Of a stretch of DNA of 64,000 nt, positions 16,180 through 30,736 are shown piece by piece (positions within the stretch are counted from its first letter, which is position 1; each line of letters begins with the position of its first letter). The DNA is taken from IMG/VR virus record IMGVR_UViG_3300015050_001523, positions 258,519 through 322,518 of that record. The stretch is one strand, 5' to 3'. Source of the DNA: a virus. Taxonomy: Duplodnaviria > Caudoviricetes. The notes beneath the pieces were generated by a model. That model was given only the letters and a program-made list of their open reading frames with translations, was not told the DNA's origin and did not search any database. A program made the translations under genes and the position numbers.

Positions 16180-16566
16180 ATGAATTTTGAAGAATATAAT
16201 ATATTGGGTAATATAATCAATACAACTTGGGGAGTTGGTTCTACCAACAACTCAAAAAGTGGCACAATGTCAATTAAGGGACAAATGATTGATGAAGATC
16301 GATTGGTTCTTAATTTTACAACAATAATAACTTTTGGAGAGCCACATGAGCGAAAAAGAGAGCTTGAAAAAGCTTCATTGGAATCTGGATCAATTCTTGA
16401 AAACTGTATTAAAAATATCAAGTCTGAGTTTAAAAAAGAGACTGGAAGGACATTGAAAACAAAAAATATAGCAGATGAAGAAGATTGGGAACTTTTATCT
16501 TTAGGACAGTATAGCGGTAGAAGGGATGCATATTATCGTCGAAAAATTGTTTTAGAGCTAAACTAA
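16180..16566 (+). CDS. Hypothetical protein directly upstream of the terminase large subunit
   Basis: 128 aa, ends 1 nt before the terL ATG. Function not recognised. Confidence 0.6.
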   Translation: MNFEEYNILGNIINTTWGVGSTNNSKSGTMSIKGQMIDEDRLVLNFTTIITFGEPHERKRELEKASLESGSILENCIKNIKSEFKKETGRTLKTKNIADEEDWELLSLGQYSGRRDAYYRRKIVLELN

Positions 16567-16567
16567 A

Positions 16568-18217
16568 ATGGCCGCCCCAAATACCACTATAAAAGGAGCG
16601 CAAGCAAAAGAAATTCTGAAGTGTGGGCGAGACCCAATATACTTTTTTAATACATATATAAAGATTCAACATCCAACAAAAGGCGCTCTTCCATTTGGAA
16701 CATTCCCATTTCAGGATGATTGTGTTCATGATTTCTTAAAACATAGATTTACAGTTGTCTTAAAGGCCAGACAGTTAGGACTTTCTACAGTTACTGCTGC
16801 TTATGCCTTATGGATAATTTTATTTCAAGAAAATGCAAATGTTTTAGTTATTGCAACAAAGCTAACAACTGCAAAAAACTTTATTGCAAAATGTAAGTAC
16901 ATGTTAAAGAATCTTCCTCCTTGGTTGGTTCTTTGCGATATTACAAGTGATACAGTTCAAACAATTGAAACTTCTCGTGGTTCAATTTTAAAAGCCGTTC
17001 CAACATCCCCCGATGCTGGCCGTTCTGAAGCCCTTTCTCTTTTGATTGTTGACGAGGCTGCCTTTATTGAAAATTTTGACACTCTTTGGACTGGATTATA
17101 TCCTTGTGTATCTACTGGTGGTCGTACAATTCTTTTATCTTCTCCTAATGGTACAGGAAATAAATTTTTTGATATCTATGATAAAGCGGCGAAAGGCGAT
17201 AATGAATTCTACCCAATAAAATTGCCATGGAGTGTACACCCAGAGCGTGATGAAAAATGGTTTAAGCAACAAACCATGAATATGACACCAAAAGAAATTG
17301 CACAGGAACATGAATGCGACTTTGCAGCTTCTGGTGACACATTTCTTGATGCTTCAATTATTGAAAAACTAAGAACTATGGTTAAGAATCCTTTGAAAAA
17401 GGTTGGAGAGGATAGAAATGTTTGGATTTGGGAAGATCCTGAACCTGAAGATCATTACATTTTATCTGCCGATACTGCCAGGGGAGATGGAAAGGATTAT
17501 TCTGCCTTTCACATTATTAATGCAACAACATCAAGAGTTGTTGTTGAATACAAAGGAAAAATGCCTCCAGATCGCTTTGCAGAACTTATTAATGAATTTG
17601 GACTTTTATACAATAAAGCATTAGTCTGCCCAGAAAACAATAATATTGGATATGCAACAATTCAAAGATTGTGTTATCTGCAATATCCAAATATTTATAA
17701 TGGAAAAGAAAAGTCTTTAGATCTTTGGAAATCTATGGCTGGAAATGACGGAAATCTCCAAAGACCATCAGGAGACCTTGGAATTTTTACAACAGGTCAG
17801 AAAAAAAATGTTCTTCTTACAAAAATGGAAGAAATGTTAAGAAATGATAAGGTTCAGATTTTTTCTGAAAGGTTCTATGAAGAATTAAAAACATTTGTTT
17901 GGATAAACAACCATAAAGTTGGAGCAGAAAAAGGCAAAAATGATGATCTTGTGATGAGTGCTGCAATTGGCCTTTGGCTTTTGGATACTGCTGATTTTTC
18001 ATTATATTCAGAAGATCAAAGTAAGGCATTGATTGATGCAATGACAAAATCAGCTTCAAGTATTGATGATATTATCAATAATCAAACTGGAAGAAATAAA
18101 GATGATTATAGTGTAATGGTTCCAGTAGCAGGTAATTCTGGAGGCTTTTCAAATTCAAATCGAAAAGCAAATAGAGTTCAAGTAATTAATAAAAAATGGA
18201 ATTGGTTAATGCAGTAA
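16568..18217 (+). CDS. terL: Terminase large subunit (T4 gp17-like)
   Basis: KARQLGLST (Walker A region), LLIVDEAAF (Walker B), ILLSSPNG (motif III), nuclease motifs ILSADTARGDGKDYS and DDLVMS. Confidence 0.93.
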   Translation: MAAPNTTIKGAQAKEILKCGRDPIYFFNTYIKIQHPTKGALPFGTFPFQDDCVHDFLKHRFTVVLKARQLGLSTVTAAYALWIILFQENANVLVIATKLTTAKNFIAKCKYMLKNLPPWLVLCDITSDTVQTIETSRGSILKAVPTSPDAGRSEALSLLIVDEAAFIENFDTLWTGLYPCVSTGGRTILLSSPNGTGNKFFDIYDKAAKGDNEFYPIKLPWSVHPERDEKWFKQQTMNMTPKEIAQEHECDFAASGDTFLDASIIEKLRTMVKNPLKKVGEDRNVWIWEDPEPEDHYILSADTARGDGKDYSAFHIINATTSRVVVEYKGKMPPDRFAELINEFGLLYNKALVCPENNNIGYATIQRLCYLQYPNIYNGKEKSLDLWKSMAGNDGNLQRPSGDLGIFTTGQKKNVLLTKMEEMLRNDKVQIFSERFYEELKTFVWINNHKVGAEKGKNDDLVMSAAIGLWLLDTADFSLYSEDQSKALIDAMTKSASSIDDIINNQTGRNKDDYSVMVPVAGNSGGFSNSNRKANRVQVINKKWNWLMQ

Positions 18218-19176: not shown

Positions 19177-21255
19177 ATGGCAACAAAAAGACAAAATTTA
19201 TTTTCAAGACTAACAAGGCTTTTTAAGTCTGGACCTGTTGTAAAAAGGCAAATTAAAGGACTCGATAACTCAGCGGTCAAATCATCTGCTTTCGATGTTT
19301 TTCGGAAAAGCACAGCTACTGTTTATGGAAACAGTATGAATGCTTATGGGCAATACGATAGACTTTCTCGTTATTCAGATTTTTCGGAGATGGAATCCAC
19401 GCCTGAAATAAATACAGCTCTTGACATTTATGCAGATGAAACTGTTGCAAAGGATGAGAAAGGAAAGTGTCTTCATGTTTATTCGGAAAATCCAAAAATT
19501 CAAAGATTGCTTGAAGAATTATTTTATGACACATTAAATTTTGAATTTGTTTCAAGATCTTGGGTTCGTAATATTTGCAAATATGGAGATATGTTTCTTT
19601 TGAATGATGTATCTCCTACCCATGGAGTGATCAATGCCCATCCAATACCAGTAAATGAAGTTGAAAGAGAAGAAGGATTTGATCCTGAAAATCCTTTTGC
19701 TATTAGATTTAGATTGGTAACTCAAGGAAATCAGGTATTGGAGCCTTGGCAGATTACACACTTTAGATTGATGGGAAATGATAGTTTTACCCCATATGGT
19801 TCAAGCGTAATCGAAGGAGCAAGAAGGGTTTGGAGATCTCTTGTCATGGCTGAAGATGCCATGTTAACTTATAGAATTATTAGATCACCAGAGCGAAGAG
19901 TGTTTTATATTGACGTTGCAAATGCTCCACCAAATGATGTTCCTAATATTATTGAGAATGCAAGATCTACATTAAAGTCTCAAGAGGTTGTTGACAATAC
20001 GGCTGGAAGAGTTGATCAAAGATATAATCCATGGGCTGTAGATATTGATTATTTTATTCCTGTTCGTGGCCAAGATGGAGGAACAAGGATTGAAACACTT
20101 CCAGGAGGAGCGAATACTACAGCAATTGAAGATGTTGAATACATTCAGCGCAAGCTTTTTTCTGCACTTAAGGTTCCAAAGGCATATTTGGGATATGATG
20201 AATCTTTGGGAGGAAAAGCCAATCTTGCTGCTGAAGATGTTAGATTTGCAAGAACTATTCAACAAATTCAAGCAGTCATTATTACAGAATTAAATAAAAT
20301 AGCAGCAATTCATTTGGCAGCACATGGATATGATGGAGAGGATTTAGTAAATTTCAATCTACAATTAAGTAATCCTTCTGCTATGGCTCAACAACAAAAA
20401 CTTGAGCTTATAAGGACAAGATTTGAAATAGCTGGGACCCGCCCAGAAGGGCTATTGTCTGATAAATATTTATATAAAGAAGTTTTCCAAATGACTGATG
20501 ACACCATTGAAGAAATGGAAAAAGATCAAATTAAAGAACTTATTAGAAAAGCTCAAATGGAGCAAATGGGTGCTGCGGCTGCTGAAGGCGGAGCCGGAGG
20601 TGGAGGCGGAGGCGGAGGCGGCCTTGGTGGTCTTGGCGGTCCTGATGATGGTCTTGGTGGAATCGAAATGCCTGCGGGTGAAGAAGGTGGCGGAGAAGGA
20701 ACAGAAACACCGTCCGAAGATGGTGGAGAAACAGAGCCGCCTACAACTGATGATGATTTATTTGCAGAATCTGAGAATGATGATGAAAGTTTCCTTCTTA
20801 TGTCAAATGATGATGACAATATCATTGAGTTTGAAATTGATGAAGGAGATGAATATAAACCTGTCCATCAACAAAATCAGGCATCTAGATATAGACATAA
20901 TAACTTAAGGCCAAGCCGCAAAAAAATGATTGGTTCAAATGGAATGAGAGCAACAGATCCTGGAAAAGCGCTAGATCACAAAGATCCTCATTTTCATGAT
21001 GTTTCATTAAAGAGAAATTGGAGTGCTGCAACATCTATTGCAAAGGATGGTTCATTCAAATTAGCAGATTCTGTTCAACGACAAATGGGAATTATAGAGA
21101 ATTCAGAAAATAAAAGAACAAGATTGTCTAGTGAAATGAAATATGCTTTAGATTCTCTTCCAAAAGGAGTATTTATAAAAGGAAATACTTTAAAGAAAAA
21201 TGAAAATTTTAAATCTTCAAATCTTATTATTGAATCCGATGGAGATGACGTGTAA
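19177..21255 (+). CDS. Portal protein (T4 gp20-like) with Gly/acidic C-terminal extension
   Basis: EDAMLTYRIIRSPERRVFYIDV, DYFIPVRG...IETLPGG, DVEYIQRKLFSALKVP, EDVRFARTI are gp20-family motifs. Follows terL. SD GGGGAG. Confidence 0.92.
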   Translation: MATKRQNLFSRLTRLFKSGPVVKRQIKGLDNSAVKSSAFDVFRKSTATVYGNSMNAYGQYDRLSRYSDFSEMESTPEINTALDIYADETVAKDEKGKCLHVYSENPKIQRLLEELFYDTLNFEFVSRSWVRNICKYGDMFLLNDVSPTHGVINAHPIPVNEVEREEGFDPENPFAIRFRLVTQGNQVLEPWQITHFRLMGNDSFTPYGSSVIEGARRVWRSLVMAEDAMLTYRIIRSPERRVFYIDVANAPPNDVPNIIENARSTLKSQEVVDNTAGRVDQRYNPWAVDIDYFIPVRGQDGGTRIETLPGGANTTAIEDVEYIQRKLFSALKVPKAYLGYDESLGGKANLAAEDVRFARTIQQIQAVIITELNKIAAIHLAAHGYDGEDLVNFNLQLSNPSAMAQQQKLELIRTRFEIAGTRPEGLLSDKYLYKEVFQMTDDTIEEMEKDQIKELIRKAQMEQMGAAAAEGGAGGGGGGGGGLGGLGGPDDGLGGIEMPAGEEGGGEGTETPSEDGGETEPPTTDDDLFAESENDDESFLLMSNDDDNIIEFEIDEGDEYKPVHQQNQASRYRHNNLRPSRKKMIGSNGMRATDPGKALDHKDPHFHDVSLKRNWSAATSIAKDGSFKLADSVQRQMGIIENSENKRTRLSSEMKYALDSLPKGVFIKGNTLKKNENFKSSNLIIESDGDDV

Positions 21256-25461: not shown

Positions 25462-27447
25462 ATGACAGCCATTCATAAAGAAGCATTGGCAGATGCTAAA
25501 AGATTGCGAGAAGTTGCAGAAGAAAATGCAAAACAAGCAATTATAGAACAAATAACTCCAACAATTAAAAATATGATTGAAAGGGAATTGCTTGGTGAAT
25601 CTTATGATGGAGTTGAAGAAGACATTCTTATTTCTCCAAATAAAGAAGAAAAAGAAAAAAAAGAAGAGGAAGATGAGCGAGTAGATGAAGTGACATTGAC
25701 AAATGAGTCTGTTGCTGCCTTGGCCCAAATGAAAATGAACAGTGCAAAATCTGAACATTATGGCGTCCGCACATTAAGAATCTCTGAGAAGATTGATAGG
25801 CTTCATGAAGCTAAAGTAAATGAAAATACTTATGGCGAAAAACTTCGACAAATAAAAAATGAAGTTGAGAAGACTTTCATAGAGCTTCAAGAAGATAAGA
25901 AAAAAAATATCGTACCAGACAATTCAGCTAACCTTATCGAAGGAAAGCTTGAAGAGTTGTGGGAAGTCACAAATAATTTGATGATTCCTGTAAAGGTTCG
26001 ACAAATCAATGAAAGCAATAAAGAAATTTCTAATAAATTTAGTAAATTTAAAATTATTGCTGAAGAGTATTCCCTTACAAACGGGGCAAAACAAAGATTC
26101 GGACAAGAGTGTATTAAGTTAGTAAAAGAAACTAAAGCACTCTTCAATTCTATAGCCGAATTAAAGGAAGTAACTAAGGATAGTTCGGTTGAGAAAGTCC
26201 ACAATGAAACAAGTGGATTATTTAAGGAGATTTACAAAATGGCTAAAAAATTTGGTTCACTAAACGAAGAAGAACTTAAGATTGTTATAAGTGGATTAAA
26301 CACTGACGATCTTGAGGGGTCACCACTATCAGCAATGGTTGAGCCCGCAGACGAAGACATGGATGACGACATGGACATGGATGACATGGGCATGGATGAC
26401 GATATGGGCGATGACATGGGTGGAGACGAAATGGACGATATTGGAATGGATGACATGGATGACGAAGAAAAGATTGACGAATATACATATTCAGCATCTG
26501 GAGGTCGTGGTCGTGGCGTTCGTAGTATGTCACAAAAAGTTCAGGCAGATCCAGATAAAAAGTCAACTATTGGAGGTTCGGCTAAGACCGGCAGAGATTG
26601 GAGCGAAGATAGCGGCAGAGATTGGAGTGACGAAGAAAGAAAAGCTGCTGGTCTTCCACGTAAAAAACAACAAGAAGGCGATGAAATGCTTGAAATCAGC
26701 GAAGTTATGCTTAAACAAGAACTTTTAAGATTAAAGAAAAGAAGAGCCGCAATGAGCGAAGCTATGAAAGCGATGAAAGGCCCTGGCTCATTTGATAATT
26801 TTGGAGGAGCAGGAAGATCAGGTGGAGGAGTTGAAGGCGATGTATTCGAAGACTTCAATGATCTCAATGGACTTGATCCTGTTGGAGAAGCTGGTTCTGT
26901 AAATGAGAGCGAAGAAGAAATGGACGAATATACTTATAAAGCATCTGGCGGCAGTGGCCGTGGTGTTCGTAGTATGTCCAAAAAAATTCAAGCTGACCCA
27001 AAGAAAGTTTATCAAGGGGATAAAAAAGAAGAAAAATCTGATGAACCTTTGAAAAAAGAAGTTAGAGCATATAAGAAAGCAATTCTTAATATGCAGGAAA
27101 ATTACGAAAAAATACAACAACAACTCCGCGAAAGTAACCTTTCAAATGCGAAGTTAGTATATGCAACAAAACTCATGCAGAATGAGAATCTTTCCAAAAA
27201 ACAACGACTTATAGTGGTCGAGCAATTGGATCAAGCACAATCTGTACGGGAAGTCAAGAAATTATTTACTGCTCTTAAAGAAGCCCTTGAAAAAGGTAAC
27301 ACAAAGAGCAAGCTCACTGAAAGTGCAGAGAGAAAGGTCATTGGAGGATCAAGCCGAGCAACTGGCTCTGGCTCAACCACTCTCACTGAATCAGAAAACA
27401 AAGAATTTGCTCGCTGGGGACAGTTGGCAGGATTTTTGAAAGGATAA
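25462..27447 (+). CDS. Prohead core scaffold protein (gp22-like)
   Basis: Directly upstream of MCP, highly charged. ALADAKRLREVAEENAK start, LRESNLSNAKLVYATKL...LDQAQSVREVK and RWGQLAG end. Many LxE sites. Confidence 0.8.
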   Translation: MTAIHKEALADAKRLREVAEENAKQAIIEQITPTIKNMIERELLGESYDGVEEDILISPNKEEKEKKEEEDERVDEVTLTNESVAALAQMKMNSAKSEHYGVRTLRISEKIDRLHEAKVNENTYGEKLRQIKNEVEKTFIELQEDKKKNIVPDNSANLIEGKLEELWEVTNNLMIPVKVRQINESNKEISNKFSKFKIIAEEYSLTNGAKQRFGQECIKLVKETKALFNSIAELKEVTKDSSVEKVHNETSGLFKEIYKMAKKFGSLNEEELKIVISGLNTDDLEGSPLSAMVEPADEDMDDDMDMDDMGMDDDMGDDMGGDEMDDIGMDDMDDEEKIDEYTYSASGGRGRGVRSMSQKVQADPDKKSTIGGSAKTGRDWSEDSGRDWSDEERKAAGLPRKKQQEGDEMLEISEVMLKQELLRLKKRRAAMSEAMKAMKGPGSFDNFGGAGRSGGGVEGDVFEDFNDLNGLDPVGEAGSVNESEEEMDEYTYKASGGSGRGVRSMSKKIQADPKKVYQGDKKEEKSDEPLKKEVRAYKKAILNMQENYEKIQQQLRESNLSNAKLVYATKLMQNENLSKKQRLIVVEQLDQAQSVREVKKLFTALKEALEKGNTKSKLTESAERKVIGGSSRATGSGSTTLTESENKEFARWGQLAGFLKG

Positions 27448-27479: not shown

Positions 27480-29354
27480 ATGAGTTTTAATCTTGATATA
27501 TTAACAGAAGGCGTTCGCGGACGTCACGTTGGACAAGAGGCACAACGCCTTACAGAAAAATGGAATAAAACTGGTCTTCTTAGAGGATTGACCGGATACG
27601 ACAAAGAGAACATGGCAAGATTGCTTGAAAGTCAGGCTGCCGAAGTTCTTCGTGAATCGTCAAGCCTTTCAACCGGTGGTGCTGCACTTACAAGCTCAGG
27701 ACAAGTTCGAGGCTTTTCAAATGTTGCATTCCCAATCGTTCGTCGAGTATTCGGCGGATTGGTTTCAAATGAATTGGTAAGTATGCAGCCTATGAGTTTG
27801 CCAGCCGGATTGCTTTTCTACCTCGATTATACCTATGGTAATAACGTTGGTGGAGAAGGTTCAGCTACCGATACAGTGTATCGTGCTGGCGATTCACTAT
27901 ATAACAACCCAACTGGTGCTGGAGTTCGTTCAGGTTCTCTTGCAGCTGGTGGTCAATATGACCTTGTTGGTAGCGGATTTACAAAAGTCCACTCAGGTTC
28001 ATTAACTGTATCAGGTTCCAACGTAAATGTTGGTGCATTTACTGGTGCAGCTAATGCTTGGGCTGCTGCCGGCACTGTAAGAACAACAAGTGACTTCACA
28101 GGATCAAATGCAAGACTTGTCTCTTTCGATCCACAAATTGAAGAAGCTTTGGATCTTGGAACAAAAGACTACTGTTTCGCATTCATTTCCGTTGCTGCAT
28201 TGGCCTCTGCAATCCCAACTGGCGATGTAAATCATGTAAAACAAATTGCTATTACCGATATGGGAACAGCAAATGGAGTTACTACATGGGGTGAAACATT
28301 CCAAGGTGGTCGTGGAATTCTAAACCTTCGTCGTTGGAATGAACGAGGAGATTGGAACGGCACAACATTCACACCTAAGCCAATGGGCGGAGACCATATC
28401 AAAATGGTTCTTGCATTAACAAATGCCGGTTCTGTTCCAACAATCGGTTCAGCAAACGTCCGTGTATCGATGGCAGTTTCTGATACTCTAAATGTTGGAA
28501 GTACAGATGGAGACACTCTTACCATTCCTTCATTCGAAACTGATTTTGCCGTTGATGCAAACCCAGCTATTCCTGAAATCGATATTAAGATCGAACAGAT
28601 TAGCGTAGTTGCCACAACTCGTAAATTGAGAGCACGTTGGTCACCAGAACTTGCTCAGGATCTTAATGCTTTCCACAGCCTTGATGCTGAAGTCGAGCTT
28701 ACAAAGATTCTATCCGAGCAAATCGCTATCGATATCGATCGAGAAATCTTGAACGATCTCCTTACCGAAGGAAATGGTGCGAACTACTACTGGAGCAGAG
28801 CCCCAGGTAGATTCGTAAACAAACGAACTGGAACAGAAGTTCAAATGAGCTCAACACTTGCAACTGGTCCTCAGTTTACTGGAACCGTTCGTGAATGGTA
28901 TGAAACACTTGTTGAAACTATCATCGACGTTGCAAATGAAATCCATAAGAAAACCCTTCGCGGTTCTGCCAACTTTATTGTTGTTGGACCTGATGTAGCT
29001 ACAATTTTGGAGCAAAGCGCTCTTTACAAAAATAGCTACAAGATCGATGGAAATGGACAAGTTTCAAATCCTCATACTATCGGTGCCGAAAACATTGGTA
29101 GTGTTGGAAATAGATTCACCGTCTACAAAGATCCAAGCTTCCCACGTCCGAAAATCCTTGTTGGATTCAAAGGTGGAAACTACCTTGAAACCGGTTATGT
29201 GTACGCACCTTATGTGCCACTTATCGTAACTCCAACAATCTTCGCACAGGAAGATTTCTCACCAAGAAAAGGTGTTATGACCAGATATGGTAAGAAAATG
29301 GTCAGAAGTGACTTCTACGGAACAGTAACTGTTCTTGATCTCAACATCATCTAA
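27480..29354 (+). CDS. Major capsid protein (T4 gp23-like)
   Basis: FPIVRRVF, VSMQPMSLPAGLLFY, TRKLRARWSPELAQDLNAFHSLDAEVEL, YAPYVPL, PRKGVMTRYG. Strong SD and a terminator downstream. Confidence 0.95.
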   Translation: MSFNLDILTEGVRGRHVGQEAQRLTEKWNKTGLLRGLTGYDKENMARLLESQAAEVLRESSSLSTGGAALTSSGQVRGFSNVAFPIVRRVFGGLVSNELVSMQPMSLPAGLLFYLDYTYGNNVGGEGSATDTVYRAGDSLYNNPTGAGVRSGSLAAGGQYDLVGSGFTKVHSGSLTVSGSNVNVGAFTGAANAWAAAGTVRTTSDFTGSNARLVSFDPQIEEALDLGTKDYCFAFISVAALASAIPTGDVNHVKQIAITDMGTANGVTTWGETFQGGRGILNLRRWNERGDWNGTTFTPKPMGGDHIKMVLALTNAGSVPTIGSANVRVSMAVSDTLNVGSTDGDTLTIPSFETDFAVDANPAIPEIDIKIEQISVVATTRKLRARWSPELAQDLNAFHSLDAEVELTKILSEQIAIDIDREILNDLLTEGNGANYYWSRAPGRFVNKRTGTEVQMSSTLATGPQFTGTVREWYETLVETIIDVANEIHKKTLRGSANFIVVGPDVATILEQSALYKNSYKIDGNGQVSNPHTIGAENIGSVGNRFTVYKDPSFPRPKILVGFKGGNYLETGYVYAPYVPLIVTPTIFAQEDFSPRKGVMTRYGKKMVRSDFYGTVTVLDLNII

Positions 29355-29374: not shown

Positions 29375-29400
29375 AAAAGGACCCGAAAGGGTCCTTTTTT
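29375..29400 (+). terminator. Rho-independent terminator after MCP
   Basis: AAAAGGACCC-GAAA-GGGTCCTTTTTT, a GNRA-loop stem with a T tract. A second small hairpin TAACAC-TTAG-GTGTTA (29352-29367) overlaps the MCP stop. Confidence 0.9.
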
Positions 29401-29458
29401 GTTTAAGTTAATTCCTTTCTTTATAAATTAGACATTTATATATGGTAAGATAAACCAT

Positions 29459-30091
29459 ATGAAATTAAATACAATAACAGACAAATTAAAAGACGTAATA
29501 GATTTCAATGATTGGATGGCAAAACAATTTAAATGGAGTTGGATTTGTAATAGTCCAGAAGGAATAACCAGTTATGCAACATTGGCTGAAGACTATAAAA
29601 AGCTTGCTTATTATTATCTTGGAGTTGGCCCTGATGACATATCTCAAAAGATGGTCATTAATATCTATAAAAAAAGAATAGTTGGAATGAGCGTATTTAA
29701 TTCTTATTTCGCTTCTTATTTTGCAATGAGAAAGTCAAATATGCAAATTTTATATCTTGTGCATAATCAGGCTTTGGCCAGACATTTTTGTTCGCTTGTT
29801 GGTTCTTTATATAATAAAGAGATAAAGAGCATTAATGTGTCAAATTCAATAATTTACTTTAAGAATGGATCAGAAATACATTTTAAAGCAAAATGTAATA
29901 TAAGGAATACCGCTTGCGGAAGACATTTGGACCTGTTGATTGTTGATGAATGTGAGTTAAATGAAGAAGAAATGAACGCAATCTTGCCATGTACTGTTTT
30001 TGGAAAAACTATTTTTATTTCTGAACTTACAGATGATTTAATTAAAAAAATTGAGCCAACAAAAATAAACAAAGGAATTTATGTTTGTTAG
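29459..30091 (+). CDS. Terminase-like ATPase domain only (truncated TerL paralogue)
   Basis: KKRIVGMS, LDLLIVDECE and ILPCTVFGKTIFIS align by eye to terL KARQLGLS, LSLLIVDEAA and LYPCVSTGGRTILLS. No nuclease domain. Confidence 0.7.
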   Translation: MKLNTITDKLKDVIDFNDWMAKQFKWSWICNSPEGITSYATLAEDYKKLAYYYLGVGPDDISQKMVINIYKKRIVGMSVFNSYFASYFAMRKSNMQILYLVHNQALARHFCSLVGSLYNKEIKSINVSNSIIYFKNGSEIHFKAKCNIRNTACGRHLDLLIVDECELNEEEMNAILPCTVFGKTIFISELTDDLIKKIEPTKINKGIYVC

Positions 30092-30103: not shown

Positions 30104-30736
30104 ATGACATCACAAATACCTGATCAATGCTTTTATAATGGAAAGATTTATTATCCATTTTATTTAGCCTCAAGAGAATGGAGTTCGTCTCCTGTTTTGG
30201 CTCATTTAACTGATGATTATAAAAATCCAATGATGGGAAATTTTGATATACCAACAAGCAAATATGAATGGTCATGTTTGCATAGGGGAAGAGTTGGATA
30301 TTTTGAACTTCAAAATGATTTACAATTGAGATTGCATGCATTAACATGGTGCGAAAATGCTTTAGATAATAATCAATTTTTTGAATATAAAAATAGACAA
30401 GAAATTTCTGAGGATATAATAAGGTTATTTCCTGAATTGGAATGTGGGCATGGCCTTGAGGACCCCGGGAGTATGCCAAATATTTCTAAATATCCAATAT
30501 ATATAAAATATGATAAAATTTATTTATATGATAACCCTTTAATGGGTTATGGAAGGCTCAGTCAAATAAAAAATGTTATTGAAGTAACTCCAACATCTGT
30601 AAAAGAAATTATCAATCCTTTTTATATTGAAGAAGATAATGTTAAAATAAATGATTCTTATTTAATTGAAGAGTATAGCCATATCAAATATTTTTTAAAT
30701 GAAATAAAGGCTTGGTTCAGAGGCAAAAGTAAGTGA
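30104..30736 (+). CDS. Hypothetical protein
   Basis: 210 aa, AGGAG upstream. No motif recognised. Confidence 0.55.
   Translation: MTSQIPDQCFYNGKIYYPFYLASREWSSSPVLAHLTDDYKNPMMGNFDIPTSKYEWSCLHRGRVGYFELQNDLQLRLHALTWCENALDNNQFFEYKNRQEISEDIIRLFPELECGHGLEDPGSMPNISKYPIYIKYDKIYLYDNPLMGYGRLSQIKNVIEVTPTSVKEIINPFYIEEDNVKINDSYLIEEYSHIKYFLNEIKAWFRGKSK

Follow-up and report, generated by a model that had tools for sequence, protein, structure and literature searches.

What is a second, short terminase-like gene doing behind the capsid gene of a phage whose own large terminase subunit (TerL) is intact? No protein of tailed phages is more conserved than TerL, whose fold is also among those that innate immune receptors of bacteria recognise. 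The question was raised by the final 64 kb of a 322,518-bp IMG/VR virus record (IMGVR_UViG_3300015050_001523; 93% complete, GC 33.6%), for which no cultured phage close in DNA was found. This whole stretch of 64,000 nucleotides is called the window, and coordinates given without a contig name refer to it. The window is the morphogenesis block of a T4-like jumbo phage. The gene in question, here called mini-TerL, is located 11 kb from the resident terL and encodes a protein of 210 amino acids (aa). Its identity as a selected, non-motor, stand-alone paralogue of the TerL ATPase core is considered secure. The gene, its motifs and the resident TerL are positioned as follows.

29459-30091, + strand: mini-TerL gene (P0001), stand-alone TerL ATPase-core paralogue, 210 aa, equivalent to T4 gp17 residues ~102-314 (N-terminal helices and RecA-like subdomain I)
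29669-29692, + strand: Walker A variant K71-K72-R73-I-V-G76-M-S78, of the KxRxxGxS type, as in KARQLGLS of the resident TerL
29933-29950, + strand: Walker B, L-L-I-V-D163-E164, with the catalytic Glu retained
30011-30028, + strand: degenerate motif III, I-F-I-S188-E-L (S-[ST]-P in TerLs)
16568-18217, + strand: bona fide intact TerL, 549 aa, ATPase and nuclease (Terminase_6N, E 1.6e-12)

Homology to the TerL ATPase domain

The resident TerL was matched to PHROG 2 over positions 262-596 (ATPase and nuclease), and its C-terminal half was matched to the terminase PHROG 24361. When the two proteins were compared by BLASTP, residues 69-188 of mini-TerL were colinear with residues 64-191 of the resident TerL (21% identity, E 2e-4). 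The motifs listed in a first-pass annotation, made from the sequence alone, were recovered in this alignment (KKRIVGMS/KARQLGLS, ILYLVHN/NVLVIAT, NGSEI/RGSIL, LLIVDE/LLIVDE and ILPC..GKTIFIS/LYPC..GRTILLS). Mini-TerL alone scored 13.5 bits against Pfam Terminase_6N (PF03237), under the gathering score of 22, and matched PHROG 5989 ('terminase large subunit') with an E-value of 4.8e-6. A phmmer search with the same single sequence against the PDB sequences returned nothing meaningful.

Relatives were then sought with HMMER among 1.8 billion cluster representatives, and eight proteins of 195-319 aa were obtained (E 1.7e-7 to 7e-4). One of them, P0009 (319 aa), was a truncated copy of an ordinary P0010-type TerL and was left out. 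The seven remaining relatives and the mini-TerL open reading frame (ORF) were aligned (alignment A4) and compared with a TerL profile (A5) using hhalign. The two profiles matched over 219 columns (probability 99.7%, E 4.5e-27). An earlier family profile matched the resident TerL at 99% (E 8e-18), with residues 11-192 of mini-TerL aligned to TerL residues 21-195. Terminase PHROGs were matched by all family members, and P0007 exceeded the Pfam Terminase_6N cut-off (29.6 bits). Mini-TerL is thus homologous to the TerL ATPase domain. The profile match and the intact 549-aa TerL bear out the proposal of a nuclease-less TerL ATPase homologue separate from terL.

The N-terminal ~60 aa had been described as unique to this protein, which was not confirmed. 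A pattern in them (MKLx...K.K.A..FLDWYKKQ ... HW[DE]LACYY) recurs throughout the family, and they can be aligned to residues ~21-63 of TerL and ~102-160 of T4 gp17. These 60 residues are the counterpart of the TerL N-terminal helices.

Mini-TerL shares its fold with the N-terminal ATPase domain of T4-type TerLs (T4 gp17 N-subdomain I; PF03237; PDB 2o0h/3cpe; P74-26, HK97, D6E, Sf6 and PhiV-1). The motifs occur in the same order, i.e. N-terminal helices, KxRxxGxS Walker A, NGS strand (retained in mini-TerL), hhhhDE Walker B and motif III strand. Unlike these TerLs, mini-TerL has 210 aa only, is devoid of the lid half (gp17 ~314-360) and of the nuclease, and is placed outside the TerL clade. It also differs from them in that the Gln of the adenine motif, the loop Arg and the S-T-P motif are all replaced. 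Instead of the adenine-binding Gln that all aligned TerLs share, mini-TerL has Tyr46 and most of the family has Trp. The Gln following the Walker A Arg is Ile74 (RQ to RI). Cys153, in the loop before Walker B, replaces an Arg that is invariant across all aligned bona fide TerLs, and the S-[ST]-P of the coupling motif III is changed to SEL. The position equivalent to the trans-arginine finger of P74-26 (R139) was ambiguous in the alignment. Walker A and Walker B were intact in six of the eight aligned family members; both were altered in P0005, and an Asp to Glu change was present in P0008.

The protein is closed by its last beta-strand (KGIYVC) at the boundary of subdomain I (~gp17 314). The stop codon (30089-30091) is located 22 codons past Ser188, as expected from the earlier remark that the gene stops right after motif III. 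Mini-TerL is missing the ~55 profile positions that form the C-terminal lid half and close the ATPase domain with EY..E.F, and the RNase H-like nuclease is neither fused nor encoded by an adjacent gene. In the short forms of the family (mini-TerL, P0004, P0005/L019 and P0002), the protein always ends just past the final subdomain I strand, whereas the full ATPase domain, to its EY..E.EALF end, is retained in the long forms (P0003, P0007, P0008 and L024). Because all the short forms end alike, the truncation of mini-TerL corresponds to a domain boundary and is not random. As it has neither the C-terminal half of the lid nor the nuclease, mini-TerL therefore cannot be a packaging motor or a terminase. 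A first exon of a terL split or interrupted by an intron or an endonuclease was also considered and was rejected, given the intact 549-aa TerL and the lack of a nuclease piece nearby. When the 322-kb genome was searched by tblastn, the only two terL-like loci were TerL (16568-18217) and mini-TerL.

The structure of mini-TerL was predicted with AlphaFold from an alignment of 18 sequences (predicted local distance difference test (pLDDT) score 86, predicted template modelling (pTM) score 0.83); the model obtained from the mini-TerL sequence alone was unusable (pLDDT 35). In a Foldseek search of the PDB, the T4 gp17 ATPase was ranked first (E 1.3e-6), followed by P74-26, herpesvirus terminase, D6E, PhiV-1 TerL (in the Avs3 complex) and Sf6, and the top 12 matches were all terminases. 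Structures were also superposed with VIA-align, with the following Z-scores.

PhiV-1 TerL (8dgc_E, TerL chain of the Avs3 complex): Z 16.5
P74-26, residues 2-220: Z 15.4
T4 gp17, residues 102-314, spanning the whole mini-TerL model: Z 15.2
HK97 TerL: Z 15.1
SF2 helicase RecA domains: Z 11-14

This check by HHpred- or Foldseek-type searches had been proposed with the first-pass annotation, which was to be refuted if non-terminase helicases were the best matches. Terminases were the best (Z 15-16.5) and helicases were lower (Z 11-14). Mini-TerL would fold as an autonomous domain.

Distribution, divergence and selection

The mini-TerL family is small: its ~10 members (195-289 aa) all come from the uncultured T4-like jumbo phage of the window and its close relatives. 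No match was obtained by tblastn of mini-TerL and P0007 against 50,697 phage records, and the sole match of mini-TerL in a word-index homologue search was itself. Family patterns scanned against IMG/VR and the JGI metagenomes brought in nothing beyond an unrelated full-length TerL (L012) and one contig that was already known. The distribution was counted over those IMG/VR relatives whose flank downstream of the capsid gene was 4 kb or longer. Mini-TerL was present in four of the six loci with a capsid identity of at least 72% and in none of the 39 loci at 68% or less; two related phages, L020 and L021, do not have it. The order capsid gene, variable ORFs, mini-TerL, neck gene gp13 was found in L002, L004, L009, L019 and L022-L024. 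The slot between the capsid gene and gp13 is a plasticity hotspot, and T4 segD occupies the same slot, after gene 23. A large HNH homing endonuclease (PHROG 3339, E 7e-82) was observed directly 3' of the capsid gene in two relatives (L019:2808-4229 and L021:12086-13540).

Maximum-likelihood analysis placed the bona fide TerLs, with the resident one among them, in one clade (support 97/97), outside which were the short proteins. The latter were grouped with moderate support (83/69) on terminal branches of 1.3-2.6. A duplicate of terL had been envisaged for this gene; the phylogeny check indicates that it is not a recent copy of the resident terL, since the TerL clade leaves the short family out. 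The family is old, fast-diverging and separate from the bona fide TerLs.

Where capsid and gp13 proteins share 84-88% identity with those of the window, the mini-TerLs share only 27-34%. In the same comparisons, non-synonymous divergence (dN) was 0.64-0.85 for mini-TerL versus 0.07-0.13 for the core genes, with synonymous divergence (dS) saturated. dN was lower than dS in 15 of 15 distant mini-TerL pairs, again with dS saturated. One pair was close enough to be measured. The mini-TerLs of L019 and L004 are 72% identical in aa (dN 0.18; dS 0.60 by NG86 to 0.95 by YN00; omega ~0.2-0.3), and the capsid genes of the same phages have a dN of 0.055 and a dS of 0.71-0.86. In this pair, ISE(N/S)xSGM replaces the KxRxxGM of Walker A and LLED/FLED replaces the DE Walker B. 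The L019/L004 lineage is under purifying selection and, judged by its sequence, would be catalytically disabled. Because of this lineage, the selected function of the family appears not to depend on ATP hydrolysis.

The suggestion of a decaying duplicate is disfavoured by the frames that remain open at ~30% identity, the dN/dS of ~0.2-0.3 in the close pair and the clean end at a domain boundary. Neutral decay of the family is unlikely. Between the window and L019, dN was ~0.77 for mini-TerL and only 0.09 for the capsid gene. This jump of the mini-TerL dN, from 0.18 to ~0.77, exceeds what the capsid gene predicts, which suggests that divergent alleles were swapped in the hotspot or that evolution was accelerated in an episode. 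No mini-TerL polymorphism was seen among identical contigs from different samples.

A comparable gene was found in a cultured phage. Gp627 of the Agrobacterium jumbo phage Atu_ph07 (YP_009612292, 244 aa; UniProt A0A2L0V0U8, 'terminase large subunit') is annotated as hypothetical and is encoded at NC_042013.1 439917-440651 (L018:4918-5652), 360 kb from the real terL. As in the window, a full TerL is accompanied by a second, short, nuclease-less gene resembling the TerL ATPase, located in an accessory region. This kind of gene is therefore not unique to the window. Gp627 is distant from the mini-TerL family (hhalign probability 77%, E 2e-5, 88 columns). Unlike mini-TerL, it has lost the Walker A Lys, has no Walker B DE in the aligned region (VIIIN) and is not beside the capsid gene. 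Gp627 and the mini-TerL family are of independent origin or were separated by a very old split. Short 'terminase' proteins in BFVD, from Pectobacterium phage CBB (235 aa) and Yersinia phage fHe-Yen9-04 (185 aa), are likewise stand-alone folds of the TerL ATPase type that accompany a normal terminase; they belong to other terminase lineages and genomic positions. No description of such genes, and no function for them, was found in the literature on terminase decoys and paralogues.

Genome setting, expression signals and neighbouring genes

The features around mini-TerL are listed below; a prohead protease gene is also present in the morphogenesis block.

16180-16566: putative TerS
19177-21255: portal
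25462-27447: scaffold
27480-29354: Gp23-type major capsid gene
29375-29398, + strand: intrinsic terminator hairpin 3' of the capsid gene (10-bp stem, 5 GC pairs, then a T-run)
29422-29451, + strand: region upstream of mini-TerL, with TATAAAT, ACATTTA and TGGTAAGAT
30104-30736, + strand: downstream orphan gene, 210 aa, with a strong AGGAG ribosome-binding site

Mini-TerL starts 60 nt past the strong hairpin (29375-29398), in accordance with its earlier description as lying immediately after the capsid terminator. From the base composition of this DNA (29% GC), the chance of an open frame of 210 codons is ~2e-9, and the five remaining frames of the region are open for at most 82 codons. The GC content at third codon positions (GC3) is 0.24, inside the range of the neighbouring genes, and no foreign composition was seen.

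Upstream of the gene, a T4-late-like TATAAAT is present at 29422-29428 and ACATTTA at 29432-29438, 27 nt 5' of the ATG and one mismatch from ATATTTA. The latter motif was found 5' of 11 of the 54 genes of the window, compared with 13 of the 373 genes outside it, and was observed 11-45 nt upstream of many structural genes (e.g. 18718, 23899, 24287, 25462, 27480, 30841, 31531, 33512 and 46097). ATATTTA is a plausible candidate for a late-promoter element, differing from the TATAAATA of T4. An extended -10-like sequence in place of TAnTTA had been reported for mini-TerL. The sequence TGGTAAGAT is indeed present at 29443-29451, but the near-late ACATTTA and TATAAAT are upstream as well, so the second part of that statement is not confirmed. 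As TGGTAAGAT ends 7 nt before the ATG, the mRNA would therefore be leaderless if it were used as a -10. No -35/-10 pair was detected in a sigma-70 consensus scan upstream of mini-TerL. There is no clear Shine-Dalgarno sequence, with GGTAAG as the sole candidate (a weak ribosome-binding site). The gene is co-directional within the late structural block. In relatives, mini-TerLs are included in operons, with start or stop codons overlapping those of their neighbours, and have no promoter region of their own. The early expression proposed before is thus unsupported, given the lack of a sigma-70 pair, the late block with near-late motifs and the operon setting in relatives.

The downstream orphan gene (30104-30736) is in the same frame as mini-TerL, from which it is separated by TAG-GAG-AAA-TGA-AAA (TAG and TGA being stops), and the two are probably co-transcribed. 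No homologue of the orphan was found among 5.8 billion proteins, and it is not present in the syntenic slot of relatives. It was considered as a missing lid, nuclease or partner and was rejected, because it resembles neither TerL nor any family, nor the zinc-finger protein of L024 or the 177-aa neighbour in L009.

In relatives, fragments of other structural proteins were found near mini-TerL. ORFs of 50-94 aa, mostly beside mini-TerL, copy capsid residues ~77-124 alone (~T4 gp23 ~94-132). These mini-capsid ORFs are positioned as follows.

L002:3481-3633, directly upstream of mini-TerL
L004:7720-8004, directly upstream of mini-TerL
L019:5422-5631, upstream of mini-TerL after a short gap
L005:2984-3211, two genes off mini-TerL
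L003:2350-2505, directly downstream of mini-TerL

No part of the first quarter of gp23 is more conserved than the copied stretch. The Gol segment probably falls within T4 gp23 ~94-132. Gol is a segment of 29 residues that binds EF-Tu and activates Lit, and is the most conserved region of gp23 (review PMC3014915). In the genome of the window, the Gol-like segment is encoded at 235388-235549 of the record, ~23 kb before the window, at the C-terminus of a 217-aa MORN-like repeat protein. A 240-aa protein (L003:6813-7535), encoded on the P0007 contig, is 31% identical to capsid residues 210-344 (insertion domain; E 1e-15) and represents a further partial paralogue of the capsid protein.

A portal fragment was also found. 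A 220-aa protein is encoded as a separate gene directly after mini-TerL in L024 (L024:13621-14283) and is fused to mini-TerL in L022 (L022:12210-13631) and L023 (L023:4947-6368) by a 1-nt difference in an A-run. It combines two DnaJ-type zinc-finger motifs (CxxCxGxG) with a segment resembling residues 311-374 of the portal (T4 gp20 353-413; BLASTP E 3e-5, PHROG 213 E 2.9e-4). The portal genes of L021, L039, L046 and L095 are interrupted by ~0.5-1.3 kb around residues 344-351, near the segment copied in this mini-portal; the interruptions are probably a mobile intron, an intein or an endonuclease.

Proposed role and rival explanations

Mini-TerL is best explained as a functional accessory gene encoding a minimal, stand-alone TerL ATPase subdomain I. 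The role we favour, with a confidence evenly poised between right and wrong, is that of a mimic of the TerL ATPase domain that works by binding, in a setting of conflict. With the Lys/Arg of Walker A and the Asp-Glu of Walker B retained, mini-TerL may still bind ATP. The selected activity of the family would need no ATP hydrolysis, and for this reason stoichiometric binding is favoured as the most likely mechanism: mini-TerL would occupy a factor that normally recognises the TerL ATPase domain. This factor could be a host sensor that detects terminases by their fold; alternatively, it could be a partner in packaging (portal, TerS or TerL), from the same phage or from a co-infecting one. The gene would then be used in phage-host or phage-phage conflict and not in routine packaging. 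Its context is of the conflict type, i.e. a patchy gene with ~30% identity between near relatives, in a slot that also contains homing endonucleases and the mini-copies. The folds of TerL, portal and capsid proteins are bound as monomers by Avs receptors, and TerL is bound directly by Avs1-3 (PMC13581612). The monomeric target cores are enveloped by these sensors, which are activated by that binding (PMC13581612).

Several points weigh against a role as a mimic. Since the binding of a target core activates Avs, a copy of the TerL fold could set these sensors off as easily as it could block them. Mini-TerL retains the catalytic Lys, Arg, Asp and Glu, which is compatible with an enzymatic role, and the binding partners named above are candidates only. 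The mini-TerL of the window has no close orthologue, so that selection on this copy is read from the family, and pairwise dS is saturated. With a weak ribosome-binding site and a strong terminator just upstream, its expression may be low. TerLs were included in the AlphaFold alignment, so the fold match is partly built in; the profile-profile match (E 4.5e-27) is independent of them. A complex of mini-TerL with the TerL ATPase domain (residues 1-290) was also predicted (score 0.25, below the mark of 0.32) and was used neither for nor against binding.

The retained catalytic residues could instead mean that mini-TerL is an active stand-alone ATPase with a new job, e.g. an auxiliary in packaging, head maturation or the handling of DNA ends of the 322-kb genome. 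This is unlikely, though it has some weight. K71, R73, G76, S78 and D163-E164 are intact here, as are both Walker motifs in 6/8 aligned members, the long forms retain the whole ATPase domain including the lid, and the gene is co-directional with the late morphogenesis block, beside the capsid gene and behind near-late promoter motifs. However, this copy is without the adenine-motif Gln, the loop Arg, motif III and the C-terminal half of the lid, and the L019/L004 lineage has lost Walker A and has ED for DE in Walker B, yet is under purifying selection. The gene is also missing from L020, L021 and the 39 more distant relatives with enough flank; hence it is not a core packaging factor. A functionless relic seems quite improbable. 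It would be a fragment of a foreign terL brought to the hotspot by homing-endonuclease or recombination traffic, and kept open by recency or hitch-hiking. Such traffic is consistent with the mobile elements of the slot (HNH in L019 and L021, segD in T4) and with portal genes of relatives whose interruption falls on exactly the segment that the mini-portal copies. This copy is also the most truncated, with a weak ribosome-binding site, degenerate secondary motifs and no close orthologue. A relic is difficult to reconcile with a 210-codon frame of such low chance probability in 29% GC DNA, with a GC3 like that of the neighbours, with family-specific motifs conserved from the first Met on, or with an exact domain-boundary truncation common to several short forms. 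The dN/dS of 0.2-0.3 in the one measurable pair, and dN below dS in the 15 distant pairs (dS saturated), also argue against it.

Early expression as a decoy, soaking up Avs-type terminase sensors before the real TerL appears, or as a dominant-negative poison of the packaging motor, was part of the first-pass annotation and is held to be rather doubtful. The match to the TerL fold extends to the TerL chain of the Avs3 complex (8dgc_E, Z 16.5), and this fold is recognised by direct binding by Avs1-3 (PMC13581612). Fast divergence, allele-like differences and a patchy distribution are consistent with such a decoy, as are the mini-copies of the capsid Gol region and of the portal segment near it in relatives, both parts of proteins known to be sensed. 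Conversely, no evidence of early transcription came from the promoter scans, Avs would as likely be triggered by a copy of its target core, and no PADLOC or anti-defence family was matched. A wider version of the binding-type mimic is a long shot. In it, the mini-TerL, the mini-capsid Gol-region peptide and the mini-portal with its DnaJ-type zinc finger would form a set of hallmark-protein mimics in the post-capsid hotspot, and would antagonise Avs- or Lit-type immunity, or the assembly of competitors, by occupying binding sites.

A selected, stand-alone ATP-binding core, kept in one lineage after the loss of its catalytic residues, points to a use of the terminase fold outside packaging. Together with the capsid Gol and portal mini-copies that travel with it in relatives, it raises the possibility that pieces of a phage's own hallmark proteins are put to use as regulators or mimics. 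With few members and short proteins, the family is amenable to direct biochemistry.

A defence system composed of a TerL-like ATPase and SIR2 was also considered and was rejected: the SIR2 is a classical sirtuin, it is not in the window and PADLOC gave no match. This sirtuin (PF02146, E 7e-47; PHROG 2162) was not found near the short-form mini-TerLs. It was observed 1-5 genes 3' of long-form mini-TerLs, at L003:2512-3225, L005:3535-4290 and L009:9623-10339.

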